A DNA stretch of 64,000 bases, from NCBI GenBank assembly GCA_051294905.1, contig CM119372.1, forward strand, positions 38,566,001-38,630,000. Direction: 5' to 3'. The translations under genes were made by a program, and so were the position numbers. Under the pieces are notes generated by a model. It was not told where the DNA came from. It did no database searches and saw only the letters and a program-made list of their open reading frames with translations. How positions within the stretch are numbered: the stretch's first letter is position 1; every line of letters begins with the position of its first letter. Shown piece after piece: positions 22,206 through 54,505 of this stretch. The DNA comes from Botryllus schlosseri (Eukaryota).

Positions 22206-22280
<75 letters not shown>

Positions 22281-22288
22281 ATTGTTGT
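22196..22288. repeat. (GTT)n microsatellite
   Basis: Direct reading of the sequence. Confidence 0.98.
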
Positions 22289-22533: not shown

Positions 22534-23804
22534 CATTGTTGGGATCACGTCTCTGTCTTCGAGTCACAAGTCATGTCGAGTCCATGTACATTTTGATTCG
22601 AGTCAAATCAAATCAAATCAAGTCAAGTCACGAATGAAGTCACAAAGTCATGTCGAATTTTTGAAGTAAGAGACATGCTGGAGGTGATTGCATTTTGCAA
22701 GATGATTGCAGTATACAGATGAGGTCGCTATTGATTCTGAATCGGTTAACAAATAACTCGATAATATTTGCGTAGAACGGGGCGTTGTAAGGCTCACATA
22801 TACGTGAAACTGATAAACCACGTTTGCAGATGTCAGTCAAATGGATAATAGAATATGGAACCTCAGAATGTTGAAACAATTTGATGTGATGCAATCCACA
22901 ATCCACCTACATCTCCATACGATACAATTTAAGCCGTCACCGAATGTTGACAAGTAATAAAAATGTATAATTTATATCCAGCCCGATTCAACTCATACAA
23001 GAGGTTATCTTCAATGTGAGAATTAAGCACTCCATAGAACAGAAATATGTGATGTGATGTGAAATTTTGTCGGATTGGGATTGGATTAGGATTAGAGATT
23101 TTTTTTGCTGAACGGATTACGATTTTGATTGGATTTACCTATTTTCCTGGAGATTGATATCTCCTGTGGCGAATGGCGACAAAATTTATTCAGATCAGTT
23201 ACTAAGGTACTTATGGTACACTACACTACAGTGCCAATGAATATGAGATATGCAAAGTTATCGTAAATCAAGAGAATCGTTGGTTGAGAAAGAAAAATTT
23301 CCAATTCATTCCTTGTATAAATGAGCATGTTTTCTAAATTTCAAGTTAGAATCGGACTTGGATTGGACGCGAATTTGAATATACAAAAGTTCTGGAGTAG
23401 GATTTGGATTAGGATTTGAATCTTCGGATTTGGATTTGATTAGGACATATAAATTCAAAATCCGCTCATCTCTGGTGTACGACCACGTAATCTCTAATCA
23501 CTTCTCTTACGGTCAATATATTTGTGATATACCGACGGAGGCTCAGTAAAACCAGGCTGCTCAATCGTTGAATGACTGGCTGCTCACACATGTCATATCA
23601 GCGTGTCGAGGACATGTATACTGCTACTGCTACTTCTACCAAATTTTTCGGCGAGTATTTGATGACTTGAAATGGACTCGAGAATTTTCCTTCGAGTCAC
23701 GAGTCAATCCACATCTTATAAATGACGAAGCAAGTTATTTTTGCAACGTGACCAGAGTCAAATCAAGTCATCTAAAAAAGTTGACTTGTGTCATCCTAAC
23801 ACTG
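22534..23804. mobile_element. Old copy of the GACTCGAGTC-rich hAT MITE family
   Basis: Ends cattgttgggatc / tcatcctaacactg with gagtca/gacttg subterminal repeats; homologous to 56683-57587; TSD not preserved. Confidence 0.65.
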
Positions 23805-28998: not shown

Positions 28999-31900
28999 TT
29001 CTAGTATTCCCGGATTATCGCGCACTGTGACTTGTAAATGTGCAATGTGCATTGTGCATAGGCTACTGCATAGTTTAATTCGTTATGGGCATGGCGCAAT
29101 GTGCATGGCACAGTGTTTAATTCGATTATTCGATTTGTTTCAACCGGAAAATATTATATTCAGATAAACTTGATCGACACCGGATGGACTGGTAACGAGT
29201 GCACCAATATCGAACGTCAAACCATTGGCCATTTGGTACAAGTCGAATTTTTATTGATCACGTCGTTATATCAACCATATCGCTCTTACTACAGTTACAG
29301 TTGAATAATAATCGCACATTTAAAGTTGAATTGAGCTGTATGGCTTAATGTTAACGAGTACAGTGCCAGTGTTAAAACGCCGCATCAGAATTTTAATGCT
29401 GTACAAGTAGTGAGGGTATCGACTTTATACGCAGGCCATTCCCCTGCCTGAGGCTATTTACGTTCGTCATCACCCTAATTGCCACGCCTGACGACCAATG
29501 CCACGCCTAGATATTTTAATGTTTTGTGAATTTCAATACCGATTTTCCATGTGTATTTAGCAATATGTATTGAATAACTTGGTTCCGAGAAATAAATAAC
29601 ATTCATTATACGTTAGATGATTAAATTCCGCATTATTCGTTAGATGATTAAATTCCGACACTTTATCTTAACTTGCTTTCGAAAAATAAATATAAATTCA
29701 GATTATACATAAGTTTCCAAAACTCTTGATGTCTATGCAAGGCTATATTCGCCAGATAATATTATTATGTGTATTTGGACTTTGTATTTTAGCGGATGAC
29801 ATGAGCTCTCAGATAATACTCATCAACGTTGAACTATTGCGGCGGTTTTATGATGATTACGTTAGAAGATTAAATTCCAATCTCGCGCAATCAATTTATG
29901 TGTATTTAAGACTATATATGATACACAAGACCTCTGTAAATATTGAGAAATGGCATCATCACTAATTAATTAATGTTCATTTATTTCGAAAAAATTGCAT
30001 AATATATCAGTAATACCGTTAACGTCACAAACGCATCCAGCACGACCAGACGGCGTGAAACAACGCTTTCGCTCGATTCTTGTAGTCGCGACATTTCATA
30101 CGATTCAGTCCTTTTCATGTCACTAGAATAAGGGTAATTAAACCGACAGTGAAACGCCGCCGGCGTCCAATAACGTAATAATGTAAGCTGCGTCGGGTGC
30201 TGCTCTAATGTTAGGAGCGAATATACTAGAAATTCCACGTCTGGACACCTGTAAGCAGGTGAGCATACTACCGTAGTAAAACGCATAACAGAATTCACGC
30301 AAAAGTCGATATTGCTTTGTGATGATTTTGATGTTGTTCCATATCGATTGGGAAGATAGGACTCCTAATTTCCTAACTAACTACATAATCCCTAGTAACG
30401 CAGTCAGACGCATAACGGAATTTACGCAAAATCGGTATTGCTCTGCGATAATTTTGATCACTATGTTTTGATAATAACTTGCTTTGATGTTGTTCCATAT
30501 CGATTGGGAAGATAGCACACCTAATTTCGTAACTAACTACATAATCCCTAGTAACGTAGTCAGACGCATAACGGAATTAACGCAAATCGGCATTGCTCTG
30601 CGATAATTTTGATCACTATGTTTTGATAATGACTTGCTTCCGAGAAATAAATAACATTCATTATACGTTAGATGATACTTTTCCTTTATATTCTATTATG
30701 TGTATTTAGGTCTAATGCGACATCCCTATGTTGGCGACAGGCCTGGTTTGAACACACTAATTTTGCAAATTAAACTTATCACTCACCACGGACACTCAAT
30801 GAAGAGCACCCTGGAGCACCCACATAAATGCTCTACAATTCTTGACTTATAAGATACTGAGCATATAATAAGCTGACAAAACTGATACTTGAGTACTCCG
30901 AAGTGTACAAGTACTTTACCTTTACACGACGTTTTGTTAAATGAATACTAATGGTACGCGAATGATCATAGACTAAGCTTGCTTTCAGAGTTGGAAACTA
31001 AATGCATATGAAAATTTAACTACGTTTTCCCCACACGCATCAAATGTAGGCCTCCTCAAGTGTTTATGAGGCGGCAAATAGTTCGAAGGTTGTTGGTATG
31101 CAAGGACGTCACATAGAATTGTGGAGTTTTCTGTAAACTATAATCCAGTGATCTATTTTCAATCACTATACTTTTATTAATCTAAACTAAGTACTGTTAG
31201 TAGGCAGACCCTAGGAAAATATCCTCTGATAAAAGCTGGAGTAATTCGTTATCCGTGAAATAAATAGATAACGCGCAATATGAGCGGTGTTACGATGACT
31301 GACAAATACTTTGAATTAATGTATAGAAGTAGCGATTTCGAACTACGTGAAAAGTTAGTCGAGCTCACGCATTTTCCATTTTCAAAAGTCAAATTACGAC
31401 GATTTTTGTAAAATGAATACTTATTTTAATAAAAATTAAAAAAGAGCGAAAAATTACATTTTATCCCGTAACGCAACAAGAAAAACCGTATGAATTTAAA
31501 CTACTTATTCATGACATAATAATAATTCTGCTTGTACACTTTTTCACATTTGATAACACTTTTAGTAGTACTTAAAAGTTTCAGTTTTAAATAAAATTCG
31601 GAATATAAACTAATCAAAAATTTCGGTAACCAATTTCGCGTAGGCTATGCATACAAATGAGGAAAGTTACATCAACGCGTGATAACTAGTTGTATTATGT
31701 AGCTTGTAATTCATGCGAGTTTCGAAACTTTTACACTGAGTCTTTTAAAGTAGATGGAAACGAAAAAAAACTAATCGAAAAAATTTGCGAAGTTTGGACG
31801 CGGCATATTTAGGTTTTTTAAAAATTATTCATACCCATGACTCGAAATATTGTTAACTAACTTATGTTTTCGACATAAGATAAGCGTGAAGTGAACAAAT

Positions 31901-33140
31901 TTCGATGTTGCGCAAACACCACAAACTTTGCTTGCTTTCAGAGCAGGCAACTAAATGCAAGACAGACTTTACGCAAAAGTCGCTGTTCTGAAAATTTTGT
32001 CAAGTTAATAGTTTGAAAACTTATACTTGAGCACTACGAAATGTACAAGTACTTTACCTTTACACGACGTTTTTTGTAAAATGAATACGAATTTTAGTAA
32101 AAATAAAAAATAAAAATGAGCGAAAAATAACATTTTATCCCGGAAAGCAACAAGAAAAATCGTATGAATTTGTAAACTACTCATTAACGACATAACAATA
32201 ATTCTACTTGTACACTCTTTCACATTTTATAACACTTTTAGTAGTACTTAACGGTTTCAGTTTTAAATAAAATTCGGAATATAAACCAATCGAAAAATTC
32301 GGTAACCAATTTCGCGTAGGCTATGCATACAAATGAGGAAAGTTCGCGTGTTAACTAGTCGTATTTTGTAGCTTGTAATTCATGCAAGTAAGTCGGACAA
32401 ATTCGTCGCAAGAACACGACTCTAATGGACATAACTAAATGAAAATTTTGTCAAGTAGATATTTTTCGGTATGCTTAATTCGATGTTGTTCCATACCGAA
32501 TAGCACTCGTCAAGGTTATACAAGCATAACCCTAAACTACTCTTTACTTCACAAAATATAAAGTTAATAAAGTAAGCAGATTTGTATGAAAACTCGTTAA
32601 ATAGAAGTAAAAGTAGCCTAGAAACATAACTGCTTACTGAAAAATCGTTACGTAGAAGTGGGGTTAGTCTACGAACATAACCACTTACTTACTTTGAAAT
32701 CTCAACTTGTACTTGTATTCGTACTTTACCTTTGCACGGCGTTTTTGTATAATGAATACTAATTTTATTAAAAAAGTAAACAAAAAGCGCAAAAATTACA
32801 TTTTATCCCGGAACGCAGCAAGAAAAATCATATAAATTTTATAAAGTAGATAGAAAACTACACTATTCCGATGCACTAAAGACTCTTACACTCTGGATTT
32901 TGTGTAGTATATACTAATTTTACATTGCGGAGTATTCCATAGAGGTTAATCCAGTGATCCTCCTTCTGTTTTCAATCACGATCCGCTTATTATTCTAGGC
33001 TTCGAACCCCACACCCAGTACGTTTTATGGGGATTAATATTTTTAGATTAAATATAGCGTATCGAGACTTCGTGAAACTTACTTGGAAATAGTTATTTCT
33101 ACCCTAATTTAAAAGATTTCTCAGATATCGTAGCAACGGA

Positions 33141-33223
33141 ACTGGGTTGGCCGAGCGGTTAAGGCGTTGGGCTTAAGTTTCAATGAACAAGTGTTCATGT
33201 AGGTTCGAACCCCACACCCAGTA
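33141..33223 (+). tRNA. tRNA-Leu(TAA)-like gene/pseudogene in left arm
   Basis: Acceptor stem ACTGGGT/ACCCAGT, A box TGGCCGAGCGG, anticodon loop CT-TAA-GT, long variable arm, GGTTCGAACCC, TTTT terminator; one T-stem mismatch. Confidence 0.7.
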
Positions 33224-33993
33224 CGTTTTACGGGGATTAATATTTTTAGATTCAAATATAGCGTATCGAGAACTACTTATTCATGACATAATAATAATTC
33301 TACTTGTACACTTTTTCGTATTTTATAACACTTTTAGCAGTTCTTAACAGTTTAAGTTTTGATTAAAATTCGGAATATAAACTATTCCAAAAAATTCATG
33401 AAGTCCTGATACGCTTTATCTGAGTTTAAAAAATTATTCATCCTAATCTGCCTCATCATCATATGCTTGTAACTAGTTCCGGACTTGCTTGCATCATCGG
33501 CTGCGCGGTGCTAGTCTTCTTGGCCACATGAAATAGGATGTTTTAGCTTCAACCTCAACGCATTAGCACACTGAATTTAAATATTGGCGATAAATAATAT
33601 ACAGTAGCTCCAATTTTAATGAAAAATAAAAATAAAAAAGCGCGAAAAATTGCATTTATCCTGGAACGCACCAAGAAAAACCGTATGAATTTGTAAAGTA
33701 GTTAGAAAACTACACTATTCCGCTACACTAAAGACTTTGACACTCCGGATTTTCTATAGTGTATACTAATTTTACATTGCGGAGTATTCAGTAAAGTATA
33801 ATCCAGTGATCCTCCTTCTATTTTCAATCACGATCCTCTTATTTGTCTAGGCTACGAACCCCACACCCAGTACGTTTTATGGGGATTAATATTTTTAGAG
33901 TCATGTATGGCGTATCGAGACTTCGTGAAACTTACTTGGAAATAGTTACTTCTACCCTAATTTAAAAGGTTTCTCAGATATCGTTGCAATGGA

Positions 33994-34076
33994 GCTGGGT
34001 TGACCGAGCGGTTAAGGCGTTGGAATCAAGTTTCAATGAACCGGTGTTCATGTGGGTTCGAACCCAACGCCCAGTA
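33994..34076 (+). tRNA. tRNA-Leu(CAA)-like pseudogene, duplicate in left arm
   Basis: Same layout as 33141-33223 with loop AT-CAA-GT and more mismatches. Confidence 0.55.
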
Positions 34077-37000
34077 CGTTCTACGGGGATTAATATTTTT
34101 AGATTCAAATATAGCGTATCGAGTACTTTTTCTCAACTGTGCTAAAACTTTTTTCACTCCGTATTTCTGTAGTATATACTAATTTACAATACCGCATTTG
34201 TAATTCGTGCAAGTACAGGAATATCATAGTTCTTGTAACAATGTTGTATGCGCACAATATATGTTTATCATAAGTCCTACAAATTCATGATTTCGCCCTA
34301 GTTTGAGTTTTAGAAAATATTATACCTACATCGCGACATCTTTCAAAAACAAAACCATGATCAATGCTTGAGAGATCATGTTTGCTATTTTTCATTGGCA
34401 TAAGTCATTCTGGACCGCAAAAACGCATTGTACGATATAGATGAAACTTAAGAAAATCCTAGTATCCTCATTTTCAAAGTAGCCGAAAATATTCGGGTTC
34501 ATTTCAATATGAATATACTATTTAATTGTATATTGAAGTTCTGTACCTCCAAGAAGCTCTTCAAAGTAGCTTAGATCTCGAAATAAGCCCTGACTCGCTA
34601 TTCTCCTCAAACCATGGAATTGTCACGAGTATCACCTTCGATCACTGAAGAAAAGGATGAAATTATATCCGAAGCATATTTCTTGACCAGAAATTTTATC
34701 ATGTACGAACTCGACTTATAATATAGGCCTGTTTCAAATTCAAGACAGTTTCAGTGTTAAACAAAAATGTACCTTGAATACTAACTTTTATGATGTGAAA
34801 TATTATATGCATCAACGAAGAAACGTCACTTTTACAATGGTTCGGTATGATTTCTATATTATTACACTCTCGTTATTGGACTGTGGTGTGACGCTGAGCT
34901 ATATCTCGATGCCTGCGCTTCCGCATTTATTTTTTCGATGTATTCTGCCCTATGTAGATTTAACATAAGGAAGGTTACTTCACTCATAAAATTCGAAATA
35001 CGTATTTGCTCGAGTTGAAGCCATAACGCTTGGAGTGAAATTTTACGTGATTTTCGTTAATATCCAACCGGGCTAATTTCGAAATGTAAATTGAAAAACT
35101 CAAATACCGCATAGTAGGACTTCGCAGATTTTCAATTCATTTTTGCTATTTTTTCATGGTGATAAGTCATTCGGGACGGTGAAATGTATTGTAGGAAATA
35201 GATGAAACTGATACAATTCATCACGACCCCTGAAAAAAGTACATTACATTTAAACATTTTATTAGCAGGAAATCGAAATACCACAAACTGTGCTAACCTT
35301 CGGAGTTGTTAAGTAAAGAAGTACTCATACTTCTTCGGAGTACCCAAGTAGGTTTTTCGCCTACACGCACCAAATACTCTCAAGTCCTTATGATATTGGA
35401 GTGCTTCAACTTCATGATAGTTATAGTATTAAGCAGAAATATACCTGGTGTACTACCGTTTTGCTTACTCAGAAATGACTACTTCGTTCTTATTTTGAAG
35501 GATTCCTCGCTCGACGCGAAATTTTATTAAGTTTTGAATAATATCCAACATGTAGGTTCAATTTGAAGGGTACTTCGTCAAACTCAAATATTGCACAGGG
35601 AGAGTTCGCAAATTCTCGATGTATTATTGGTATTTTTATTGCAGTAAGTCATTCTGCAGTGCGAAAATGCATCGTAGGATATAGATGAAACTGACACCGC
35701 TCACCAAGACCACTGGACCACCGAAAAAAGTACATTTCAACATTTTAGTAGCAGTAAATTCCTAGTAAAGTACAAGAAGTGATGATTTCCGAGTGAGTTG
35801 AAAAGTAAGTATTGAAGGTATAGTTTGCTCGAACACCGAAAACTCAAAAATAGAAGAAGATGCAGTGTAAATAGTTGATATCTTGATTAAGTTTAGCGCA
35901 AGCAGGCCGAACCTATACTTCAGTACTCCAAAATGTACAACTACTTCGCTATGAACACCCTCCACGTAAAACGTGACTAGGTTTTAGTCTTTTAGACTAC
36001 TTTATCGCTACTTGGCAGTTTCAGTTTTAGATAAAATTTGGAATAAAAAAAAAACTAGCTCATTCACCCACTTGGAAATCTCTTCTTCAACCTTCACTTG
36101 AGTGGAGCAAGTAGATCTCATTTATTTTTAATTCCACATGTACACTCGACCATATTTTATGACTTACATAATTAATTTTCTCTATATTTGAAGTCAAGTC
36201 TGTCAAATAGCAGTATATGTTACGATGAGCTTATATTCGTTATGTTTGATCATTCTGACTAACGATATTCATTAGGTGAGCTCTCCAGTGATAGTCTTAG
36301 GACTTGGAACAGTGTTATATGACATCATAGCGATACGAAGTTACGACAGTTTATAATTAGCTACCTTACGAAACCAAATTTCGTTAGTTCATCTCCACCT
36401 TCAAATATCGCGTTATACAAATATTGTTTATACGGAACAAATACATATATGGCTATGTTGTTGCAATCTTCAAAAAAGTACCTCCCTCAGTATCCAATTT
36501 CTCGTGGGCTATGCATACAAATGAGGACAGTTACATCAACGAGTGGTAACTTGTTGTATTATGTAGCTAGTAATTAGTGCAAGTAAGTCCGCAACTACTG
36601 TTCAAGGCCTTTTCCGCGTTCTTAATAATATCACCTCAAGTTTACTCAAGTATCTCCAATTTGATACTCGAGCACTAAATCCTTCTTTTCCGCGGGCATG
36701 TTAGAGGACATAGGGCGATATTCAAACAATTCGCAATTTTGCTGGAATACAAGTACAATTAGGGATCTAAAAGTAACTAATATAGATGGTTATGTTTGTA
36801 GATTACTTACCCTTCTACTCAGAGGTTTTTCAGGTGGAACTACCTACCTTTAGGACTTCAAATGCTAAAGTAGTTAGAGCTTACGTTTGTATCACCTTAA
36901 CAAGTGGCATTATCAGATATGAAAATGATATTATCACATAATACCAGAAGTTAACACACGTCAATGTGTTTCGGACTTCACGAGAAATTGGTTACTAAGA

Positions 37001-37107
37001 GAAGTATATTCTTGTATACACAATAGCGGAGAGAATCTTTAAATTGTAGTAAGCAGGCCGATGGGTATTCATTGAGTTGGATAAGCATAAAAAACATTCC
37101 CGCGCGC

Positions 37108-37151
37108 TTCTAAACCTAACTCTGCCTAACCCTACCACCTAATCCTAAGAC
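37108..37151. repeat. Non-palindromic central loop of degenerate telomere-like CCTAA repeats
   Basis: ttctaaacctaactctgcctaaccctaccacctaatcctaagac, closed by cccgcgcgc/gcgcgcggg. Confidence 0.8.
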
Positions 37152-40100
37152 GCGCGCGGGAATGTTTTTTATGCTTATCCAACTCAATGAATACCCATCG
37201 GCCTGCTTACTACAATTTAAAGATTCTCTCCGCTATTGTGTATACAAGAATATACTTCTCTTAGTAACCAATTTCTCGTGAAGTCCGAAACACATTGACG
37301 TGTGTTAACTTCTGGTATTATGTGATAATATCATTTTCATATCTGATAATGCCACTTGTTAAGGTGATACAAACGTAAGCTCTAACTACTTTAGCATTTG
37401 AAGTCCTAAAGGTAGGTAGTTCCACCGGAAAAACCTCTGAGTAGTAGGGTAAGTAATCTACAAACATAACCATCTATATTAGTTACTTTTAGATCCCTAA
37501 TTGTACTTGTATTCCAGCAAAATTGCGAATTGTTTGAATATCGCCCTATGTCCTCTAACATGCCCGCGGAAAAGAAGGATTTAGTGCTCGAGTATCAAAT
37601 TGGAGATACTCGAGTAAACTTGAGGTGATATTATTAAGAACGCGGAAAAGGCCTTGAACAGTAGTTGCGGACTTACTTGCACTAATTACTAGCTACATAA
37701 TACAACAAGTTACCACTCGTTGATGTAACTGTCCTCATTTGTATGCATAGCCCACGAGAAATTGGATACTGAGGGAGGTACTTTTTTGAAGATTGCAACA
37801 ACATAGCCATATATGTATTTGTTCCGTATAAACAATATTTGTATAACGCGATATTTGAAGGTGGAGATGAACTAACGAAATTTGGTTTCGTAAGGTAGCT
37901 AATTATAAACTGTCGTAACTTCGTATCGCTATGATGTCATATAACACTGTTCCAAGTCCTAAGACTATCACTGGAGAGCTCACCTAATGAATATCGTTAG
38001 TCAGAATGATCAAACATAACGAATATAAGCTCATCGTAACATATACTGCTATTTGACAGACTTGACTTCAAATATAGAGAAAATTAATTATGTAAGTCAT
38101 AAAATATGGTCGAGTGTACATGTGGAATTAAAAATAAATGAGATCTACTTGCTCCACTCAAGTGAAGGTTGAAGAAGAGATTTCCAAGTGGGTGAATGAG
38201 CTAGTTTTTTTTTTATTCCAAATTTTATCTAAAACTGAAACTGCCAAGTAGCGATAAAGTAGTCTAAAAGACTAAAACCTAGTCACGTTTTACGTGGAGG
38301 GTGTTCATAGCGAAGTAGTTGTACATTTTGGAGTACTGAAGTATAGGTTCGGCCTGCTTGCGCTAAACTTAATCAAGATATCAACTATTTACACTGCATC
38401 TTCTTCTATTTTTGAGTTTTCGGTGTTCGAGCAAACTATACCTTCAATACTTACTTTTCAACTCACTCGGAAATCATCACTTCTTGTACTTTACTAGGAA
38501 TTTACTGCTACTAAAATGTTGAAATGTACTTTTTTCGGTGGTCCAGTGGTCTTGGTGAGCGGTGTCAGTTTCATCTATATCCTACGATGCATTTTCGCAC
38601 TGCAGAATGACTTACTGCAATAAAAATACCAATAATACATCGAGAATTTGCGAACTCTCCCTGTGCAATATTTGAGTTTGACGAAGTACCCTTCAAATTG
38701 AACCTACATGTTGGATATTATTCAAAACTTAATAAAATTTCGCGTCGAGCGAGGAATCCTTCAAAATAAGAACGAAGTAGTCATTTCTGAGTAAGCAAAA
38801 CGGTAGTACACCAGGTATATTTCTGCTTAATACTATAACTATCATGAAGTTGAAGCACTCCAATATCATAAGGACTTGAGAGTATTTGGTGCGTGTAGGC
38901 GAAAAACCTACTTGGGTACTCCGAAGAAGTATGAGTACTTCTTTACTTAACAACTCCGAAGGTTAGCGCAGTTTGTGGTATTTCGATTTCCTGCTAATAA
39001 AATGTTTAAATGTAATGTACTTTTTTCAGGGGTCGTGATGAATTGTATCAGTTTCATCTATTTCCTACAATACATTTCACCGTCCCGAATGACTTATCAC
39101 CATGAAAAAATAGCAAAAATGAATTGAAAATCTGCGAAGTCCTACTATGCGGTATTTGAGTTTTTCAATTTACATTTCGAAATTAGCCCGGTTGATATTA
39201 ACGAAAATCACGTAAAATTTCACTCCAAGCGTTATGGCTTCAACTCGAGCAAACACGTATTTCGAATTTTATGAGTGAAGTAACCTTCCTTATGTTAAAT
39301 CTACATAGGGCAGAATACATCGAAAAAATAAATGCGGAAGCCCAGGCATCGAGATATAGCTCAGCGTCACACCACAGTCCAATAACGAGAGTGTAATAAT
39401 ATAGAAATCATACCGAACCATTGTAAAAGTGACGTTTCTTCGTTGATGCATATAATATTTCACATCATAAAAGTTAGTATTCAAGGTACATTTTTGTTTA
39501 ACACTGAAACTGTCTTGAATTTGAAACAGGCCTATATTATAAGTCGAGTTCGTACATGATAAAATTTCTGGTCAAGGAATATGCTTCGGATATAATTTCA
39601 TCCTTTTCTTCAGTGATCGAAGGTGATACTCGTGACAATTCCATGGTTTGAGGAGAATAGCGAGTCAGGGCTTATTTCGAGATCTAAGCTACTTTGAAGA
39701 GCTTCTTGGAGGTACAGAACTTCAATATACAATTAAATAGTATATTCATATTGAAATGAACCCGAATATTTTCGGCTACTTTGAAAATGAGGATACTAGG
39801 ATTTTCTTAAGTTTCATCTATATCGTACAATGCGTTTTTGCGGTCCAGAATGACTTATGCCAATGAAAAATAGCAAACATGATCTCTCAAGCATTGATCA
39901 TGGTTTTGTTTTTGAAAGATGTCGCGATGTAGGTATAATATTTTCTAAAACTCAAACTAGGGCGAAATCATGAATTTGTAGGACTTATGATAAACATATA
40001 TTGTGCGCATACAACATTGTTACAAGAACTATGATATTCCTGTACTTGCACGAATTACAAATGCGGTATTGTAAATTAGTATATACTACAGAAATACGGA

Positions 40101-40181
40101 GTGAAAAAAGTTTTAGCACAGTTGAGAAAAAGTACTCGATACGCTATATTTGAATCTAAAAATATTAATCCCCGTAGAACG

Positions 40182-40264
40182 TACTGGGCGTTGGGTTCGA
40201 ACCCACATGAACACCGGTTCATTGAAACTTGATTCCAACGCCTTAACCGCTCGGTCAACCCAGC
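40182..40264 (-). tRNA. Mirror copy of the tRNA-Leu(CAA)-like sequence
   Basis: Reverse complement of 33994-34076. Confidence 0.55.
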
Positions 40265-41034
40265 TCCATTGCAACGATATCTGAGAAACCTTTTAAATTA
40301 GGGTAGAAGTAACTATTTCCAAGTAAGTTTCACGAAGTCTCGATACGCCATACATGACTCTAAAAATATTAATCCCCATAAAACGTACTGGGTGTGGGGT
40401 TCGTAGCCTAGACAAATAAGAGGATCGTGATTGAAAATAGAAGGAGGATCACTGGATTATACTTTACTGAATACTCCGCAATGTAAAATTAGTATACACT
40501 ATAGAAAATCCGGAGTGTCAAAGTCTTTAGTGTAGCGGAATAGTGTAGTTTTCTAACTACTTTACAAATTCATACGGTTTTTCTTGGTGCGTTCCAGGAT
40601 AAATGCAATTTTTCGCGCTTTTTTATTTTTATTTTTCATTAAAATTGGAGCTACTGTATATTATTTATCGCCAATATTTAAATTCAGTGTGCTAATGCGT
40701 TGAGGTTGAAGCTAAAACATCCTATTTCATGTGGCCAAGAAGACTAGCACCGCGCAGCCGATGATGCAAGCAAGTCCGGAACTAGTTACAAGCATATGAT
40801 GATGAGGCAGATTAGGATGAATAATTTTTTAAACTCAGATAAAGCGTATCAGGACTTCATGAATTTTTTGGAATAGTTTATATTCCGAATTTTAATCAAA
40901 ACTTAAACTGTTAAGAACTGCTAAAAGTGTTATAAAATACGAAAAAGTGTACAAGTAGAATTATTATTATGTCATGAATAAGTAGTTCTCGATACGCTAT
41001 ATTTGAATCTAAAAATATTAATCCCCGTAAAACG

Positions 41035-41117
41035 TACTGGGTGTGGGGTTCGAACCTACATGAACACTTGTTCATTGAAACATAAGCCCAACGCCTTAAC
41101 CGCTCGGCCAACCCAGT
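41035..41117 (-). tRNA. Mirror copy of the tRNA-Leu-like sequence with anticodon TAT
   Basis: Reverse complement of 33141-33223 except that the loop reads CT-TAT-GT. Confidence 0.6.
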
Positions 41118-44100
41118 TCCGTTGCTACGATATCTGAGAAATCTTTTAAATTAGGGTAGAAATAACTATTTCCAAGTAAGTTTCACGAAGTCTCGATACG
41201 CTATATTTAATCTAAAAATATTAATCCCCATAAAACGTACTGGGTGTGGGGTTCGAAGCCTAGAATAATAAGCGGATCGTGATTGAAAACAGAAGGAGGA
41301 TCACTGGATTAACCTCTATGGAATACTCCGCAATGTAAAATTAGTATATACTACACAAAATCCAGAGTGTAAGAGTCTTTAGTGCATCGGAATAGTGTAG
41401 TTTTCTATCTACTTTATAAAATTTATATGATTTTTCTTGCTGCGTTCCGGGATAAAATGTAATTTTTGCGCTTTTTGTTTACTTTTTTAATAAAATTAGT
41501 ATTCATTATACAAAAACGCCGTGCAAAGGTAAAGTACGAATACAAGTACAAGTTGAGATTTCAAAGTAAGTAAGTGGTTATGTTCGTAGACTAACCCCAC
41601 TTCTACGTAACGATTTTTCAGTAAGCAGTTATGTTTCTAGGCTACTTTTACTTCTATTTAACGAGTTTTCATACAAATCTGCTTACTTTATTAACTTTAT
41701 ATTTTGTGAAGTAAAGAGTAGTTTAGGGTTATGCTTGTATAACCTTGACGAGTGCTATTCGGTATGGAACAACATCGAATTAAGCATACCGAAAAATATC
41801 TACTTGACAAAATTTTCATTTAGTTATGTCCATTAGAGTCGTGTTCTTGCGACGAATTTGTCCGACTTACTTGCATGAATTACAAGCTACAAAATACGAC
41901 TAGTTAACACGCGAACTTTCCTCATTTGTATGCATAGCCTACGCGAAATTGGTTACCGAATTTTTCGATTGGTTTATATTCCGAATTTTATTTAAAACTG
42001 AAACCGTTAAGTACTACTAAAAGTGTTATAAAATGTGAAAGAGTGTACAAGTAGAATTATTGTTATGTCGTTAATGAGTAGTTTACAAATTCATACGATT
42101 TTTCTTGTTGCTTTCCGGGATAAAATGTTATTTTTCGCTCATTTTTATTTTTTATTTTTACTAAAATTCGTATTCATTTTACAAAAAACGTCGTGTAAAG
42201 GTAAAGTACTTGTACATTTCGTAGTGCTCAAGTATAAGTTTTCAAACTATTAACTTGACAAAATTTTCAGAACAGCGACTTTTGCGTAAAGTCTGTCTTG
42301 CATTTAGTTGCCTGCTCTGAAAGCAAGCAAAGTTTGTGGTGTTTGCGCAACATCGAAATTTGTTCACTTCACGCTTATCTTATGTCGAAAACATAAGTTA
42401 GTTAACAATATTTCGAGTCATGGGTATGAATAATTTTTAAAAAACCTAAATATGCCGCGTCCAAACTTCGTAAATTTTTTCGATTAGTTTTTTTTCGTTT
42501 CCATCTACTTTAAAAGACTCAGTGTAAAAGTTTCGAAACTCGCATGAATTACAAGCTACATAATACAACTAGTTATCACGCGTTGATGTAACTTTCCTCA
42601 TTTGTATGCATAGCCTACGCGAAATTGGTTACCGAAATTTTTGATTAGTTTATATTCCGAATTTTATTTAAAACTGAAACTTTTAAGTACTACTAAAAGT
42701 GTTATCAAATGTGAAAAAGTGTACAAGCAGAATTATTATTATGTCATGAATAAGTAGTTTAAATTCATACGGTTTTTCTTGTTGCGTTACGGGATAAAAT
42801 GTAATTTTTCGCTCTTTTTTAATTTTTATTAAAATAAGTATTCATTTTACAAAAATCGTCGTAATTTGACTTTTGAAAATGGAAAATGCGTGAGCTCGAC
42901 TAACTTTTCACGTAGTTCGAAATCGCTACTTCTATACATTAATTCAAAGTATTTGTCAGTCATCGTAACACCGCTCATATTGCGCGTTATCTATTTATTT
43001 CACGGATAACGAATTACTCCAGCTTTTATCAGAGGATATTTTCCTAGGGTCTGCCTACTAACAGTACTTAGTTTAGATTAATAAAAGTATAGTGATTGAA
43101 AATAGATCACTGGATTATAGTTTACAGAAAACTCCACAATTCTATGTGACGTCCTTGCATACCAACAACCTTCGAACTATTTGCCGCCTCATAAACACTT
43201 GAGGAGGCCTACATTTGATGCGTGTGGGGAAAACGTAGTTAAATTTTCATATGCATTTAGTTTCCAACTCTGAAAGCAAGCTTAGTCTATGATCATTCGC
43301 GTACCATTAGTATTCATTTAACAAAACGTCGTGTAAAGGTAAAGTACTTGTACATTTCGGAGTACTCAAGTATCAGTTTTGTCAGCTTATTATATGCTCA
43401 GTATCTTATAAGTCAAGAATTGTAGAGCATTTATGTGGGTGCTCCAGGGTGCTCTTCATTGAGTGTCCGTGGTGAGTGATAAGTTTAATTTGCAAAATTA
43501 GTGTGTTCAAACCAGGCCTGTCGCCAACATAGGGATGTCGCATTAGACCTAAATACACATAATAGAATATAAAGGAAAAGTATCATCTAACGTATAATGA
43601 ATGTTATTTATTTCTCGGAAGCAAGTCATTATCAAAACATAGTGATCAAAATTATCGCAGAGCAATGCCGATTTGCGTTAATTCCGTTATGCGTCTGACT
43701 ACGTTACTAGGGATTATGTAGTTAGTTACGAAATTAGGTGTGCTATCTTCCCAATCGATATGGAACAACATCAAAGCAAGTTATTATCAAAACATAGTGA
43801 TCAAAATTATCGCAGAGCAATACCGATTTTGCGTAAATTCCGTTATGCGTCTGACTGCGTTACTAGGGATTATGTAGTTAGTTAGGAAATTAGGAGTCCT
43901 ATCTTCCCAATCGATATGGAACAACATCAAAATCATCACAAAGCAATATCGACTTTTGCGTGAATTCTGTTATGCGTTTTACTACGGTAGTATGCTCACC
44001 TGCTTACAGGTGTCCAGACGTGGAATTTCTAGTATATTCGCTCCTAACATTAGAGCAGCACCCGACGCAGCTTACATTATTACGTTATTGGACGCCGGCG

Positions 44101-45302
44101 GCGTTTCACTGTCGGTTTAATTACCCTTATTCTAGTGACATGAAAAGGACTGAATCGTATGAAATGTCGCGACTACAAGAATCGAGCGAAAGCGTTGTTT
44201 CACGCCGTCTGGTCGTGCTGGATGCGTTTGTGACGTTAACGGTATTACTGATATATTATGCAATTTTTTCGAAATAAATGAACATTAATTAATTAGTGAT
44301 GATGCCATTTCTCAATATTTACAGAGGTCTTGTGTATCATATATAGTCTTAAATACACATAAATTGATTGCGCGAGATTGGAATTTAATCTTCTAACGTA
44401 ATCATCATAAAACCGCCGCAATAGTTCAACGTTGATGAGTATTATCTGAGAGCTCATGTCATCCGCTAAAATACAAAGTCCAAATACACATAATAATATT
44501 ATCTGGCGAATATAGCCTTGCATAGACATCAAGAGTTTTGGAAACTTATGTATAATCTGAATTTATATTTATTTTTCGAAAGCAAGTTAAGATAAAGTGT
44601 CGGAATTTAATCATCTAACGAATAATGCGGAATTTAATCATCTAACGTATAATGAATGTTATTTATTTCTCGGAACCAAGTTATTCAATACATATTGCTA
44701 AATACACATGGAAAATCGGTATTGAAATTCACAAAACATTAAAATATCTAGGCGTGGCATTGGTCGTCATATAGGCGTGGCAATTAGGGTGATGACGAAC
44801 GTAAATAGCCTCAGGCAGGGGAATGGCCTGCGTATAAAGTCGATACCCTCACTACTTGTACACCAGTGTTGGGATGACTCGAGTCTTGACTTGACTCGAG
44901 TCACCTTTTTCGTGTGACTTGACTTGACTCGAGTCACTTTGCAAAAATGACTTGACTTGACTCGGCGCTTCAAAAATGTGTATTGACTCGTGACTCGGAG
45001 CAAAATTCACGAGTCAATTTCAAGTCATTAAGTAAACTGTGTCGATTAAATAACCATATCTTGTTTATGTTTGGGTTGTTCGCGATACGCCGATGTCACT
45101 TGTGAAAGCAACCGGTCATTCGCTGATTGCTCGTTTCACTGATTCTCCATTGTCACATCACAAATAATTTGACCGCTAACGAAACAATCACAGCTTACGT
45201 TATCTTAGTAGCAATAGATTAATCTAATAGCAACGTGTATCCTTGTTTTTAAGACATTACATTGCGGATGTGCTCACATTTACCAACCATCTTGTTTGAT
45301 AT

Positions 45303-46780
45303 TATTATATTCTTTATTCACAGTAAGAAACTGGTCAATACACTCATAATCCGGGGAGCAACCTGCACCCAAAGGAAAATGGCGAGATTGGAGTAAATTT
45401 TTTAAAATTTCAGTAATGCAGTCAAATTGTTATTCTTATGCAATACATGGAGAAGTCAGATTACAGAATTGCAGTAGATGAAGCATTGGCAAGGGTTACA
45501 GAGCAGAGGTAGAGATGATTGAAAATGAAGAATAGAAATTACAGAAATGATGCTGTGATTCACTAGTATAATTTTAGTCCAGAGGTGCATTCAACGCCTT
45601 TCAATCGTTGTGCTTTGGCGCATATTCTCATTTTTAATTCTTCTTGCAACATTGTCAGTTTTTCTGTTGACTGCAGTTTGGTTTGGTGCTCCAGTTCTAT
45701 TCTTTTTACTTTATTTTTTACTTTGCGGGAAACATTTCCTTTTTTTAGTTCTGAGAGTATCGCAACGTCACACCTTGGTTTTGCGATTTTGTTTTCAATT
45801 CTGCGTTGCCAAACTGGCGTATGCCTTCCCCTTTTTTGTTGATAGTTCTTGGTATTTTGCAGTGCCTTTCTGAGATAACTGCCGCAGTGCTATAAATGAG
45901 GTTGTTGATTGTTGTCAAGGGACATTGTGGTTTTTCTCCTTGTTTGTCATTTAGAGTTGCAGGCAGTATGGTTTCTGTCAAAATTTTGTTCGCTACTGCA
46001 ATATCCGTTTTCAGTTTCTTTGTAATTTGTAAGTCAGGTAACTGCACTCTGTCATTTACATTCAATGTGGATTTCATTCGGTCGATGATTTGATTTTTGA
46101 TCTCCAATTCTAATTCCGTGTCTATGTCGCCATCATTAGGTGTTGTTGATTCATTCGGGTGCCCGGTGGTATTTTGTAATTCTACTTCTGCGATGTTCGG
46201 GTCATCAAGTGATTGTTGTGGATCAGGTGATCTTGGCCGAATTGCAGTTCCATTGCCTCAGAGTTTTCTATGTTTTTGTTACACATTTCTCCCTCGATTT
46301 CTGCGAATTCTTGTTCAGATAATTTTTTATTTTTTATTACACAACGTCTCATTGTTGCCAGGGTATTGGCAGTCATGGTTGGAGAGTTGTTCGTTCTCTC
46401 TTTCCATTTTTGAAAAGTTCCTTCGGTTACTCCTGCCGAGTTTTCAAATTTGGTTAAGAAGTAACATCTCATTATTTCTTTATACTCTTCTTTACTCCAT
46501 CTGTGTCTCTTCTTTTTTTCTTTTGCAGCAGAGCTGTTTTGTGAGCCACAGTTCGGTGTTGCACAGGCGCCATGTTGAGAAATATCTTCTCTTTGGTGTT
46601 CCTGTGTGGTCGGAGTTGACGAGTCCTCTGGGGTCATCCGCTTGTTCCCGCGGCGGGTACGTCCAGGTGCGATATATCCAAATCGTTTCGCAGGCATTCA
46701 CAGCAGTGATGCGTCAGTTCAGAAGTTAGGTTAATTTAAAGTAATTAATTAATTATTAATTAATTCCTTAATACAACCAA
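45303..46780 (-). mobile_element. Internally deleted R4/Dong-like non-LTR retrotransposon
   Basis: KRHRWSKEEYKEIMRCYF...W...LATMRRCVIKNKKLSEQEFAEI and RVQLPDL...INNLIYSTAAVI resemble the R4/Dong ORF N-terminus; (TAA)n-like sequence at both ends; frameshifted, no RT domain. Confidence 0.7.
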
Positions 46781-47122
46781 ATATTATTATTATTATTAAT
46801 AGCACATTTACAGTGGCGCTTATCGCCTTTTTCAGGCTTTGTGCACCACGACACGAATATTTGTAATGTTCATTGGTCTTTGTCTTCAGTAATCTTGGGG
46901 ACGACTTCTTAGATCTTTCGCTCATTCATACGTCAGACTCTCTCACATCCATGCGTCCCGGTCGTGGTCTTTACTGCCGACTTCTAGCGCGGCTCACTTT
47001 CGTTCTGGGCTTTTCAATGCACTGCAACGGCAGTGAGGTCGGCGATGAGGAGCCCAGAAAAACCTCCGACACATAGAAGTTGATCCGAACCGGGATTCGA
47101 ACCACTACCATTGGTGTCGTGA
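46781..47122 (-). mobile_element. 5'-truncated tRNA-derived SINE with (TAA)n tail
   Basis: B box GGTTCGAATCCC and 3' gataagcgcca, shared with 53285-53477; 15-bp TSD catcttgtttgatat at 45288-45302 and 47123-47137. Confidence 0.8.
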
Positions 47123-48284
47123 CATCTTGTTTGATATAAAACGAACGAATATAGTTTACGCGTTTATATTCTCACGGATGTGTATTTGGGCAGTGTATTG
47201 TACCACATCAATTTCTTCAACTTCTCGAGGCTTCGTATTCGATCCCCTATATTGGCTGATAAAATCAGACTGTAGATGTAACTATACAATTACTCGCGTA
47301 TTTTATTAGCAGTTCCACGTTTGCGTGAGTGCTGCAACATCGTTTTGCATGTATGTTTATCTTTATATTCGTTATTTGATTCAAGATAAATGGCCAATTC
47401 ATCTGTCCTTAATCTAGTTAGCAAAATGTAATGACTTTGCATCATCACTCATACTTCGAATTTTCAATTTGACTTGAATCGTGACTTGACTCGTGACTTG
47501 ACTTGACTTGACTCGATTTGACTCGAGTCACCTCCAAAAAACGAGCGACTTGACTTGACTCGAGTCACCTTTGAAAATCGATTGACTTGACTTGACTCGA
47601 GTCAAAATGTGCAATGACTCGAGATGACTCGTGACTTGAAGGTAGTGACTTGATCCCAACACTGCTGTACACAGCAATGGTACGGAGTAAAGTGCGTTGT
47701 GCAACTATAGAGTATGACTGGAGTGACGACTCGATTGTTCTCCCATTGTTAGCCGGCAGAATGGTCACGGTCAGATGGATCCACCCAAAACAGGATCGCT
47801 CAGTGCTTGTTTCAATGGCGTTCAAGGCGATTCGCCGTGTATTTCTTGAAGTTGCGTCGGAATTAGTTAGACAGTTCAACATTTAGGTAGCGGTGGCGAG
47901 TCGTTATGACTAGTGAATAATACTGTGCAGCCTATGTTACATTTCTCACGAGATTGATGTGATATTGTGGCTTTGATCCTTTGTAGAGTTTGCTACGTAT
48001 ATGAATATAATGACAGAAGGTATAGATTCTATATAGAATAGCTGGTTCGTGTGCATTGGCTATTGTGAGATGAATTCATGGAAAGAAAGACTGAAGAATA
48101 CTACAAAGTGAACAAGTGGAAAGATCTTGAACTATACCGATATGCAATTCACGATATCGTTGATTGAAAATATGTCCTATATTAACTGCAGAAACTCGAG
48201 TATGAATATAACAAATAATATTGCAACTGTCTTGTAGTCTTATATAATGCCTGTCAGATAACCGCAGAAACTGAGTATGACTAG

Positions 48285-49599
48285 CAGGACCGTAACTGCC
48301 GCACCCCAAACCCCCCAATTAGGGGGGGGCGAGCTCGAAGGGGGCCCAAAATTATTTCGCGAATTAGCATAAATTATTGAGTATTTTTCAAAAATTTATG
48401 CAACTTTTTCAAAAAAATTTCGCGCTGCGTGTGATTTCAAGTTGCCAACTTTCTTAGTTATTTGGTAGCCTACTCTTCCCCAAGACAAAATACGCAAAAT
48501 TTATCGAAATGGGCATATCGGCGAGACATTTAAAGTTTTAGAACATGTAACATGCGACTCCAAGAAGTGTGCCAGAACGATCGGCAGCGAGAAAACCTGG
48601 GCCAAAAAGGACTGCCCGCTTACGCTGACCGAAAACTTCGTTATATATGCAAAATGCATATAGGTATAATTTTCCATAGGCGCCTAAATGACTGGCGCCG
48701 AATGTTCCTGTCTTGGCAATCTGAACCTCAGAAGACAAATACCATAATCCGCAGGAAAAAATTGTATGCCCATTGCCCATAAAGAAATACCAATTTGAAA
48801 TCACGTTCGTCGTTAGTCTAGTACATTTGGGCGATTCTGTATTTTTTTATATAACAGACAGGAGATCACAAAATGACATCATGAAACGAAGTCATACCAA
48901 CGGGGCCACCCGCCCGAATATGTTTAATTATTATTTAGGGGCCCTACAGTTTCCAAGCCACCTCATTCAGCCCTACCGGTAAATCTGACAACGTGAACAA
49001 GAAATTGATAGCAATATATATGCAATTCCCAATATTATTGACCGATTTTATCATGAATTATCGAATATTTTCGCGCTTTGAGCTGGCTCACTAAACTGTG
49101 GCCCTTATTTCGTGACAAAAGCGAACAACGTGATGGGGGGGAGGGGCGGTTTATCACCCTATGGGAGCCCAAGACCCAAGTTTTATTGGGGGGGGGCTGG
49201 CCAAGTGCTGTTTCGTTCCTGCGAACGGGTCAACGCCCGATGATGTTCAATTATTATTGAGGGCTCCTACCATTTCAAACACACCTCACTCAGGTCTACC
49301 GTTAAATCAGATTACGTGGGCAGAGAGAGGATAAAAATTGATAACAATATATATTCAATTCCCAATCATATTGACCGGTTAAATCATGAATTTTTAAATT
49401 TTTTGCGCTTTGCGCGTGTGGACGACTAAAGCTGCCCCACTAAACGGACGGTGAACACAGATGATGAGTAGCGGTACACAGCGTATAGCCAATGGGGGGT
49501 CTGGGGGGCGAGGCCCCCAGAAGTTCGGTTTATCACCCTATGAGGGGCCCATGACCAACGTTTTGGGGGGGGGGCTGACGAAGTGCGGTCACGGCCCTG
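48285..49599. mobile_element. hAT MITE (CAGGACCGT family) nested in the P-like element
   Basis: TIR caggaccgtaac/gtcacggccctg; TSD atgactag. Confidence 0.9.
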
Positions 49600-49886
49600 A
49601 TGACTAGAACAAGAGCCTTGTGTAATGTTAATGTTCTGCTTGAGCTCGACTCACAATAGCCAGAGCTTACTTCTTGAAAGTGTGCAAAATCGCACTTGAA
49701 GGGAATTCGTTTTCATTGCCATGAACACAGGAAGACGTCTGCCGGTCGACATTAGTAGTAAGCCAATGCACCACGTCAAGGTTTCGACCAATGCATTGGT
49801 TTCCTTTTTTAGGTAGGGAACCTCAATGTGGATAGGCAGCATTTGCCACAGAGAGAAAAAACTACCATACTAAAAGAGCATATTGT

Positions 49887-50915
49887 TCATTTTTTTTTCA
49901 AGCCATCTCGCAAACTTTTGGAAAATTTGGAGGACTTTTTTTGCTTCTCATGCAATGCAAACTTCGCAAAATTGTGAGACAAGATGTTATTCAAGTGTCT
50001 CATTGCCTTATCCATGACATCCTCGACCTCATTTAGGTCTGAGCCAGATTGAAGTGACACAGTATGAATTAATTTGTTAAAGAATGGATCACAGTGAATT
50101 GAGTCAAGTACCCTGAAAAAATTGATCTTTTTCAGGGGTTTTGCCATTTCTTTACTGTGGATAACATAAAAGCGGAGAACCATGCCATGAAACTGTTCAG
50201 ACGGGCTCTTCAATCCATCGACTTTCTTCTGCATCACTTTAATGAGGTTTCCCGATGGCGCTGCAGATGTTAGGCATGTGGCAATTGCTTCGTTAGCTTG
50301 CTTAGAAATGGCTCCAAAAAGCACTCCACCAATATATTCAAGTATGTCTAAAAACATGTCAAAGTTTTTCCATGGAAAGGCAAAGTATCAAAGGCTATTG
50401 ACTTACCAGATTCCTTGCTGTTGACTCCTCCAATCTCTGTGATTGGATCCTGTTCTTTACCGCACACGAGAGAATCAAACATCTTCAAAAGTAATGCTGA
50501 AGCTGGCAATTGCGGCAAACCCAGCAACTTGTTAGCTTGGTGACAGATATTAGAATAATGTTGATAAAATCCGTCAACACCAAGTTTGCAATATTCAGAA
50601 TGGAGTTGTTTCACCGATGGAACAGCTTTGATCACGTCTAGTTCCTCGAATGATGGGGCGCATTTAAAGTATTTTTTGGTATACACAAGCCCTATTCAAA
50701 ACAGCAATTACAGCATCCTCGGATATATCCCAAGTAGTGGTGGGAACTTTATGATTTTTGTAATGTTTTTTCAGAGCTTTCACAGTCGGAAAGGATGCTT
50801 CGCATTCCTCACAAATCACACCTTTCCAGTTATCGAGTCCTTCGAAACATTCTTCAATTTCCATTTCAGTCAGTCCCTCCCAGTCATCCCAAAGTGATGC
50901 AGCTAAATCAGTCAT
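49887..50915 (-). pseudogene. Frameshifted transposon-borne ORF with N-terminal C2H2 zinc finger
   Basis: Three overlapping ORF pieces: CEEC-x12-HYKNH finger, then LEYIGG and GLKSPS motifs like the YIAGY...GGLxxPS of P/THAP9-type transposon proteins. Confidence 0.6.
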
Positions 50916-51366
50916 GATACCGATTTCTATCCGTGACGAAATATGATCTAAATCTGGCGAAAAATATAACAGAGGCTACACGGTATTATTCACTAGTCAC
51001 AACGACTCGCCACCGCTGCCTAAATGTTGAACTGTCTAACTAATTGCGACGCAACTTCAAGAAATACACGAAGAATCGCCTTGAACGCCATTGAAACAAG
51101 CACTGAGCGATCCTGTTTTGGGTGGATCCATCTGACCGTGACCATTCTGCCGGCTAACAATGGGAGAACAATCGAGTCGTCACTCCAGTCATACTCTATA
51201 GTGCAACTATGATGTTATCGACAATTGACTAGTATTCATTATGTCGTCACAAGCCGATACGGCGGCACCTATGTGTTCGTTGCTGCATCCGATGTTACTG
51301 ACGGCTGACAGACTCTAGATTACTATAGATAACAAACCTACGGGTAAATTAGTAATCTATATAGAC

Positions 51367-52055
51367 CAGGGGTGGCCAACCTTCTCGGCTAAAGGGCCAC
51401 ATGAATTGAGTGCGCTGCCCACTAGCCGCGCCAAGCGCTTAAAAGTTTCGAAGTTAATATTATAATTACTTGGGTATATTGCGAGTCGACTGTATACCGC
51501 CCGCTGGGCTCAGTTTGCAAGGACAGGACTATTCGGCATCTGGACATATCGATATCGAAGATTTCCGCTAATATACGACAATCATTTTGTGCCTACATTT
51601 CATCGCCGACGATCTTTCTGCGAGTGTAAACGCAAAATACATTCTCTCGTAATTACGAATATAGTTCTACTCAATCGGCTAAATCAGGCGTTTTTTCATT
51701 TTCAGGTGGGGTAGGCTACAAAGAAAGAAATCGTGTGACAATTAAACACGCGAAGCGTGAAGAAAAATTTTACTACTAGTTTAGTTTATTGTAATGTATG
51801 ACGATTTACTAAAACTGTGACTGGACCCTGGATCTACCAATGCGTCGAAACTGATATTGTAGTCATCAACATCCCAAGTGTCGCGGCCAGACTAATCATA
51901 TTTTTGGTTGGCCTTGCAAGTTCACTATCTGACCATACAATTTTGATAATATAACAGAATTTCGATAATATAATGGGAAATTAGCTCGCGGGCTACTCAA
52001 AACCTTCTCGCGGGCCACATATGGCCCGCTGGTCGCGGCGGGTTGCCCACCCCTG
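51367..52055. mobile_element. hAT MITE
   Basis: TIR caggggtggccaacc/ggttgcccacccctg; TSD atatagac; same insertion present at 62932-63626. Confidence 0.92.
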
Positions 52056-52215
52056 ATATAGACAGACACCTTCGATGGTTTTCAGAGCCGGAGCCGGAGC
52101 TGGAGCCGGAGCAGTGGTAGCAATGCGGCTCCGGAGCTGGAACCGGAGCTAATGTATGATAGAAGAAAGCGCCGGAGCTGGAGCAATGCAAATTTACGGC
52201 TGCTCCAAAGCCCTG

Positions 52216-52702
52216 ATTAGTACCTTTTCGTCTTCGCGAAATGAGCGTTTCTTCAATATCAAACACTGAACCCCCGCCCAGTTGACTTGTGTCCCGCATG
52301 AGTGCCTCGGAACATATTTCCCTCAAGAAATTGCACCAATATATTATTGATCTGGCACAAACCCCACTTTCCGACACAATTCTATGCTGTCGTGCTTCAG
52401 CCACCCAAAAATAAGTCACCTAATAACTTCTTCAATCCCAGATTACTCTTTGCAAAGAAGGATCCGTTTCGTATGCTTGAGGTAGTGCGACATGATGCAT
52501 TAATGCATCGAAATCGGTAGCCATCTTTTGTGCAACCGGTAACTTCTTGTCGCATCGTAATACCACACAGCGAGCAATCAATAGATTTCGCCAATAGTCC
52601 ATGACCTCTCATAAATTGTATGCAACAATCCAGGTTCGTAATAACTCCCGTCACTGCCAATTGCTGTATATTCATCATTTCCCTCGATTCCCAAATAACC
52701 AC
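52216..52702 (-). pseudogene. Merlin (IS1595/ISXO2-like) transposase N-terminal remnant
   Basis: CSLC...DGYRFRCINASCRTTSSIRNGSFFAKSNL, frameshift, YFW...IYWCNFLREIC...QLGGGSVFDIEET..RRRK; cut at the hAT end (52215). Confidence 0.85.
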
Positions 52703-54372: not shown

Positions 54373-54505
54373 GTGTCCTAACAATTTTCTCTGCTCGCCT
54401 TTTTCATCCATGGTGTAACCAGCTGTCTTTTAATGGGTAAAGTGGTGCCAAACCTGTCAAAACATGTCGATTGGACTCTACGAGTAGGTACATTAACTAT
54501 AAATC

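Follow-up and report, generated by a model that had tools for sequence, protein, structure and literature searches.

A 15-kb near-perfect palindrome with Maverick-type ends in the Botryllus schlosseri genome: a likely non-autonomous fold-back insertion

Miniature inverted-repeat transposable elements (MITEs) and foldback elements such as Galileo are non-autonomous, carry long inverted arms with internal repeats, and use the enzyme of a partner. In snap-back or copy-back defective viral genomes and in self-complementary adeno-associated virus (AAV) genomes, one end is duplicated into a hairpin, with the terminal origin present on both sides and with genes being lost. Self-complementary AAV genomes are perfectly palindromic (PMC12870357). 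For Mavericks (Polintons), a vertebrate survey gives 5'-(AGT)2//(ACT)2-3' as the commonest end motif, with perfect 6-bp target duplications, lengths of 12,723-24,620 bp and terminal repeats of 46-1,447 bp, and ties the repeated end motif to protein-primed replication (PMC8097293). The published model of Polinton replication includes a folded single-strand intermediate (PMC4196379), and Polinton-like viruses carry tRNA genes (PMC12220804). Here, we describe a palindrome of 15,451 bp, located at 29406-44856 of a 64,000-nt stretch of Botryllus schlosseri (assembly GCA_051294905.1, contig CM119372.1, positions 38,566,001-38,630,000, forward strand), which is referred to as the window and in whose coordinates all positions are given. 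We consider it probable that the palindrome is a real, gene-less and multi-copy element with Maverick-type ends, likely a non-autonomous fold-back satellite that was integrated by a helper after the hAT-type element next to it.

Insertion site, junctions and contents of the palindrome

Comparison of the window with itself gave a single 15.47-kb inverted match (29397-44865); in addition, the intervals 29223-29406 and 51199-52218 both aligned with the minus strand of 62793-64000, where a sister copy of the host repeat is located. A first-pass annotation of this DNA had reported that the sister is uninterrupted at 63800-63860, and the string quoted for it was found literally on the minus strand at 63835-63802; the target sequence in the sister is TATACAAC. 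The layout of the site given there was also reproduced, with AATGC (29395-29399) and TGTACA (29400-29405) followed by the palindrome (29406-44856), TGTACA (44857-44862), C (44863), the hAT-type element (44864-47664) and CTGTACAC (47665-47672), after which the host flank resumes. When three inserts, namely the palindrome, the hAT-type element and a third insert at 47704-51202, were excised, the flanks were colinear with the reverse complement of 62790-64000, as the same annotation had predicted, with 1077 identical positions in 1252 columns and 8.65% substitutions in 1179 ungapped columns (99/1182, or 8.4%, when counted by segments). The features of the site are as follows.

29223-29399, plus strand: left host flank, part of the host repeat; 13 substitutions in 175 ungapped columns compared with 64000-63824
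29400-29405, no strand: left TGTACA target copy, equal to bases 2-7 of the interrupted left hAT 8-bp duplication
29406-37107, plus strand: left arm, starting with AGTAGT; many internal direct repeats and no recognisable protein gene
37108-37151, no strand: central spacer (hairpin loop), 44 bp
37152-44856, minus strand: right arm, ending with ACTACT
44857-44863, no strand: right TGTACA and the C that is the last base of the interrupted left hAT 8-bp duplication
44864-47664, plus strand: hAT-type non-autonomous element with ends CAGTGTTGGGAT; 966-bp MITE core and 1820-bp nested insert
47665-47672, no strand: intact right copy of the hAT 8-bp duplication, CTGTACAC, the first base of which carries the argument on order
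47704-51202, no strand: third insert, absent from the sister, 3.5 kb with approximate ends; 263-bp inverted ends with 16/263 differences
51203-52218, plus strand: host flank on the right, which aligns colinearly with the sister (63790-62793), with 84 substitutions over 978 ungapped columns
62793-64000, minus strand: uninterrupted host-repeat paralogue, with the target at about 63835-63802; continues past the end of the window

The sister had been described as an empty site. A single uninterrupted target is present in it; it is, however, not an allele but a paralogue with a divergence of about 8%, which shows the ancestral state and provides no empty allele. The mirror symmetry ends exactly at TGTACA, with 0 bases further, and the correct flank resumes there, which, as had been argued, would not be the case for a fold-back artefact. 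The arms carry distinct changes, as also stated earlier, with 10 substitutions, one 4-bp indel and one 1-bp indel over 7707 columns, corresponding to an arm-to-arm divergence of about 0.13%; an eleventh mismatch is listed at the spacer edge.

The contigs of four public sequencing runs were mapped to 37095-47900 only, X1, X2 and X3 being from one sample and X18 from a second one, and the single records discussed below are among the best-supported 32 of 208,733 records. As for the selection of runs, 18 of the 21 listed contain part of 37110-45400, none of them at least half of the words; five had a share greater than 0.2, four of which were mapped, and shares below 0.2 (marine and seawater metagenomes, organisms B-D) were taken as no evidence. 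The 44856/44857 junction, on which the first-pass annotation had made the reality of the insertion depend, was matched by record 21 of X2 (153 letters, depth 13.6), which corresponds to 44734-44886 with no difference and no gap, reaches 123 letters to one side of the junction and 30 to the other, and contains the 4-bp indel specific to the right arm. Of the 30 junction-spanning 31-mers, 24 are unique within the window. Furthermore, record 25 of X3 covers the spacer with 12 other letters, indicating that a relative with the same centre exists. The summed depth over the arm bins was 1,092-24,611 in X2, compared with 6-22 for single listed records, and 3,985-79,860 in X1 with one spike omitted, and all 21 bins located wholly in the arm or centre had summed depths of thousands or more in all four runs, in both samples; these depths do not represent copy number. 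Thus, the arm is multi-copy in both samples, and the element is a multi-copy family. Taken together, the colinear flanks and the exact right-junction contig support the earlier proposal that the palindrome is a real and precise insertion.

The arm contains the following features.

30327-30639, 31396-32389, 32761-34127 and 35037-35759: regions of internal arm duplications
33141-33224, plus strand: tRNA-Leu(TAA)-like gene, with a short T run after it (ARAGORN; Rfam 48 bits, gathering 29)
33994-34077, plus strand: tRNA-Leu(CAA)-like copy inside a 518-bp internal duplication (28.9 bits, slightly below gathering); mirror at 40181-40264
34473-34569, plus strand: host retroposon-like repeat tail (34483-34559) between two copies of a 10-bp duplication; mirror at 39689-39785

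In the palindrome, the longest stop-to-stop frame is 127 amino acids, compared with a mean of 103 and a 95th percentile of 132 in shuffled sequences, and none of the 23 frames of at least 55 amino acids matched Pfam; among six read-through frames, none matched Pfam and none matched PHROGs. The arm is built from internal direct duplications of 157 bp (95%), 333 bp (88%), 518 bp (89%) and 244 bp (70%). The spacer is composed of CCTAAC-like units, which we take to resemble degenerate telomere-type repeats, and its presence demonstrates that a spacer of 44 bp between arms of 7.7 kb is tolerated. The mirror of the first tRNA-Leu-like gene, at 41034-41117, differs from it in one anticodon base, which is one of the ten arm substitutions. 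The two tRNA-Leu-like copies within an arm differ at 10 of 84 positions and the sequence upstream in the same duplication at 37 of 377, so that the divergence of the copies is as high as that of the sequence around them, with no indication of selection. Because the depth at these genes is like that in the adjoining bins, they seem to belong to the family rather than to a host insert. A 22-mer of the arm tRNA had no match in viral contigs.

The retroposon tail region is identical between the arms at all 131 letters. Host copies of the repeat, which is a very high-copy one, are present at 553-637 and 1565-1649 with 92-94% identity, and the X1 depth was 549,675 in the bin at the tail compared with 15,375 and 18,262 in the adjoining bins; in the mirrored tail, the loose ends of X1 were mixed at 39693 and shared a continuation at 39777. 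From these features, we read the tail as a putative truncated retroposon insertion. As such an insertion occurs once and on one side, the presence of the tail in both arms would indicate that one arm was copied from the other afterwards. In addition, among the best 40 of 568 rows, both arms agree at 32 of the 32 arm sites where another letter has at least 87% of the X1 depth, compared with the 10 substitutions that separate the arms.

Target duplication, class and order of insertion

The palindrome carries AGTAGT at 29406-29411 and ACTACT at 44851-44856, immediately inside the 6-bp direct repeat, and thus has the Maverick end motif, for which the probability of AGTAGT occurring by chance at one given site is 3.3e-4; its length of 15,451 bp also lies within the Maverick range of 12.7-24.6 kb. 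TGTACA flanks it on both sides and is single in the paralogue, with which a duplication of 0, 2 (TA), 4 or 6 bp is compatible, because TGTACA is self-complementary and one copy does not fix the duplication length. A TA duplication would be of the Tc1/mariner type. The best reading is a 6-bp duplication, since this is the sole partition that places the known AGTAGT/ACTACT motif at the very ends. With regard to the other properties of Mavericks, we found inverted repeats of 7.7 kb around an interior of 44 bp, where a unique interior bounded by terminal repeats of 46-1,447 bp would be expected, and no Pfam or PHROGs match to the core genes (pPolB, integrase, ATPase, protease and capsid proteins). 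Because the core genes are absent and the inverted repeats fill the element, the palindrome is best read as a non-autonomous, helper-dependent Maverick derivative and not as an autonomous Maverick. In the contigs searched with a terminal 20-mer, the sole metagenome-contig match (L001) was rejected as a 21-base chance match in an unrelated GC-rich contig.

An 8-bp duplication and short terminal inverted repeats are the criteria for hAT-type elements. The element at 44864-47664 has a perfect 12-bp terminal repeat and, with the palindrome discounted, an 8-bp duplication of CTGTACAC, and its boundaries are fixed by mixed-flank loose ends in X1 at 44864 (105 records) and 47664 (100 records). The 8-bp rule for this family is backed by a second copy at 56683-57587, which has its own 8-bp duplication, CTGTGACT, on both sides and differs from the present copy by 14%. 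Transposase is absent from the copy at 44864-47664, and the hAT label is based on the ends and the duplication length. The element had been annotated as a hAT MITE; this is corrected here in that its total length is 2801 bp, including a 1820-bp insert that has a 15-bp duplication. In this insert (45303-47122, minus strand), a tRNA-like box lies close to the 5' end, and two 170-amino-acid frames with no Pfam match presumably represent the start of a non-LTR (long terminal repeat) retroposon protein. The hAT-type MITE is represented by one more fragment, at 22534-22755, beside a TTG microsatellite (22179-22289, about 37 units).

The palindrome was said to have landed in the left copy of the hAT 8-bp duplication, after the hAT-type element, and this order is supported by one base of the right copy, CTGTACAC. 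If the hAT-type element was inserted first, the observed sequence is obtained without mutation, by doubling of CTGTACAC and then of TGTACA in the left copy. If the palindrome was first, TTGTACAC would have been doubled by the hAT-type element, which requires a later mutation of the right copy to the ancestral C. Crude odds for the former order are 40-70:1, the time being bounded from above by half the sister divergence, and the order is identical under every partition of the duplication length (0, 2, 4 or 6 bp). The hAT-type element is likely the older one, with which its 1820-bp nested insert is in agreement. The insertion of the palindrome had also been called late. This is supported for the relative order, and it would hold for absolute age, in view of an arm divergence of 0.13% compared with 8.4% between the sisters, only if the arms were not homogenised in place.

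Origin of the mirrored arms and alternative explanations

With respect to mechanism, the integrase of a helper Maverick likely inserted the palindrome, with a 6-bp duplication, within the left 8-bp copy of the hAT duplication. The strand displaced in protein-primed replication may fold back over its full length, or alternatively, one half may be copied back from the centre. Each new copy would thus depart with two identical arms, like the two LTRs of a retrovirus, and the 12 arm differences would date from after insertion. A helper, its enzymes and any packaging are what we infer from this scheme. A more specific possibility, which we put forward tentatively and would not expect to hold in full, is that the palindrome may represent a self-complementary satellite genome of an animal polintovirus, that is, a helper-sized, gene-less hairpin that would be replicated, perhaps packaged, and integrated by a Maverick, with its arms reset at each round, as a per-copy insertion clock, and with tRNA-Leu as its sole cargo.

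Several points weigh against reading the palindrome as a helper-integrated Maverick derivative. At the level of the site, the empty site is that of a paralogue rather than an allele, the mapped span of 37095-47900 leaves out the left junction, and the X2 run is possibly from the source sample of the assembly. Record 21 of X2 is one letter short of the 31-letter bridging rule and passes 44862 unbroken, although two differently flanked arms should fork the graph, which we can only ascribe to graph cleaning, having no other explanation to offer; no loose end at 44856 was found among the 24 rows listed (of which there are 5866 more). At the level of the arms, the agreement at 32 of 32 sites is expected at 99.9% arm identity and shows only that symmetric change exceeds asymmetric change, and gene conversion in place would equally give identical arms. 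As for order and class, the hAT-first order depends on a single base, this copy by itself is compatible with a duplication of 0, 2, 4 or 6 bp, one copy with its flanks was examined, with no helper Maverick among the sequences examined, and the terminal 18-mer had no match in viral contigs.

The alternative that deserves most attention, even though we judge it rather improbable, is that a real Maverick-derived insertion acquired or kept its mirror in the chromosome through break repair or arm-to-arm gene conversion, in which case arm identity would not date the insertion. Breaks are prone to occur in long, near-identical inverted repeats whose spacers are short, arm conversion has been described for the Y chromosome (PMC7999016), and the mirrored retroposon tail is accounted for equally well. 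However, a diverged relative that shares the centre (X3 record 25) and the multi-copy state of the arm in two samples suggest that the family is mobile as a palindrome, no trace of Maverick core genes is present in the arm, and 10 substitutions and 2 indels, some of them less than 300 bp from the centre, are uncorrected along the whole arm. It is considerably less probable that the palindrome is a fold-back element of another superfamily, starting with CAAGTAGT and flanked by a TA duplication, or having a 4-bp or no duplication. Here, all four symmetric partitions fit the sequence, but only the 6-bp one puts AGTAGT/ACTACT at the ends (PMC8097293; chance 3.3e-4), and the TA reading requires a chance match of four host bases to the element ends.

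We give a similarly small chance to the reversed order, in which the palindrome came first, the hAT-type element was inserted at its edge, and the first base of the right 8-bp copy then underwent a T-to-C change. The two orders are told apart by a single base, and the change would be a transition; against this, the observed base is the ancestral one found left of the palindrome and in the sister, at odds of 40-70:1, and the hAT-type element is old enough to have a nested insert and to differ by 14% from its relative in the window, whereas the arms differ by only 0.13%. Least probable of all is a fold-back read or assembly artefact. Fold-back occurs in about 0.55-0.6% of Nanopore genomic reads and in virtually no HiFi reads (PMC12870357), and among the records listed, none spans the whole palindrome. 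A read artefact is nevertheless unlikely because of the exact junction contig, which carries the right-arm-only indel, and the multi-copy arm in two samples; in addition, the symmetry stops exactly at the duplication where the correct flank resumes, the 44-bp spacer is also present in the diverged relative, and one of the arm differences affects a tRNA anticodon, which would be plausible for a real mutation.

Neighbouring features and comparison with known systems

The host repeat was searched for its second end, which was not found in the window. Both sister repeats contain a nested MITE-like element (51367-52056 and 62932-63626) with identical 8-bp flanks, so that this element is older than the sister duplication, and both are closed by the same 14-base terminus (52202-52215 and 62796-62809). 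Just past the host repeat, at 52400-52702 on the minus strand, a short frame with two CxxC motifs and no Pfam match may be a transposase fragment. A C2H2 zinc finger near 50667-50975 lies in a broken reading frame of the third insert (47704-51202), the duplication length of which is ambiguous. An intronless frame of 511 amino acids at 54503-56038 on the plus strand has IRF and IRF-3 domains (Pfam E values of 2e-22 and 9e-18), which mark it as an interferon-regulatory-factor gene near the nest of elements. An imperfect palindrome of 640 bp (79%) at 60965-61606 is probably a MITE.

The empty-site argument is a routine validation, and the element that it validates matters more. Pipelines discard structures of this type, a near-perfect palindrome of 15 kb, as fold-back artefacts; the one described here is a true insertion whose place within a nest of four elements can be dated. 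What is known of Maverick replication comes mainly from a bioinformatic model in which the intermediate is a single strand that is folded (PMC4196379), and multi-copy whole-length hairpins with Maverick ends would be the expected defective product of such replication. The one-time host insertion present in both arms would be a direct trace of arm-to-arm copying, and if the arms are reset at each move, arm divergence could date insertions as LTR pairs do and document the activity of Mavericks in an animal lineage that is still living. No published account of whole-length palindromic Mavericks was found in the literature searched, to which Repbase, supplements and the two papers that founded the field (Kapitonov and Jurka 2006; Pritham 2007), where such elements may be listed, did not belong, and none is described in the available portions of PMC10045372, PMC6431247, PMC8502044 and PMC8504770.

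Compared with Mavericks/Polintons, the palindrome has the same 5'-(AGT)2//(ACT)2-3' ends, a 6-bp duplication in the best reading, and a length within their range, but it differs in being devoid of polymerase, integrase, ATPase, protease and capsid genes and in that repeats of 7.7 kb, instead of 46-1,447 bp, fill the element (PMC8097293). The tRNA genes, Leu included, are shared with Polinton-like viruses as the cargo of a Polinton-related element (PMC12220804); those viruses are, however, gene-bearing and found in protists, whereas the tRNA-like genes here are carried by a gene-less element of an animal, with no indication of constraint. Like MITEs and Galileo, it is non-autonomous, with long inverted arms, internal repeats and a putative partner enzyme, but it is about ten times larger than most of them and has Maverick-type ends and a probable 6-bp duplication, which are not of a cut-and-paste-superfamily type. 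By structural analogy, it may finally be likened to snap-back genomes and self-complementary AAV, as a whole genome that appears to consist of one end doubled into a hairpin without genes, although, in contrast to these, the palindrome is a multi-copy element that has integrated into the germ line, with a probable target duplication.

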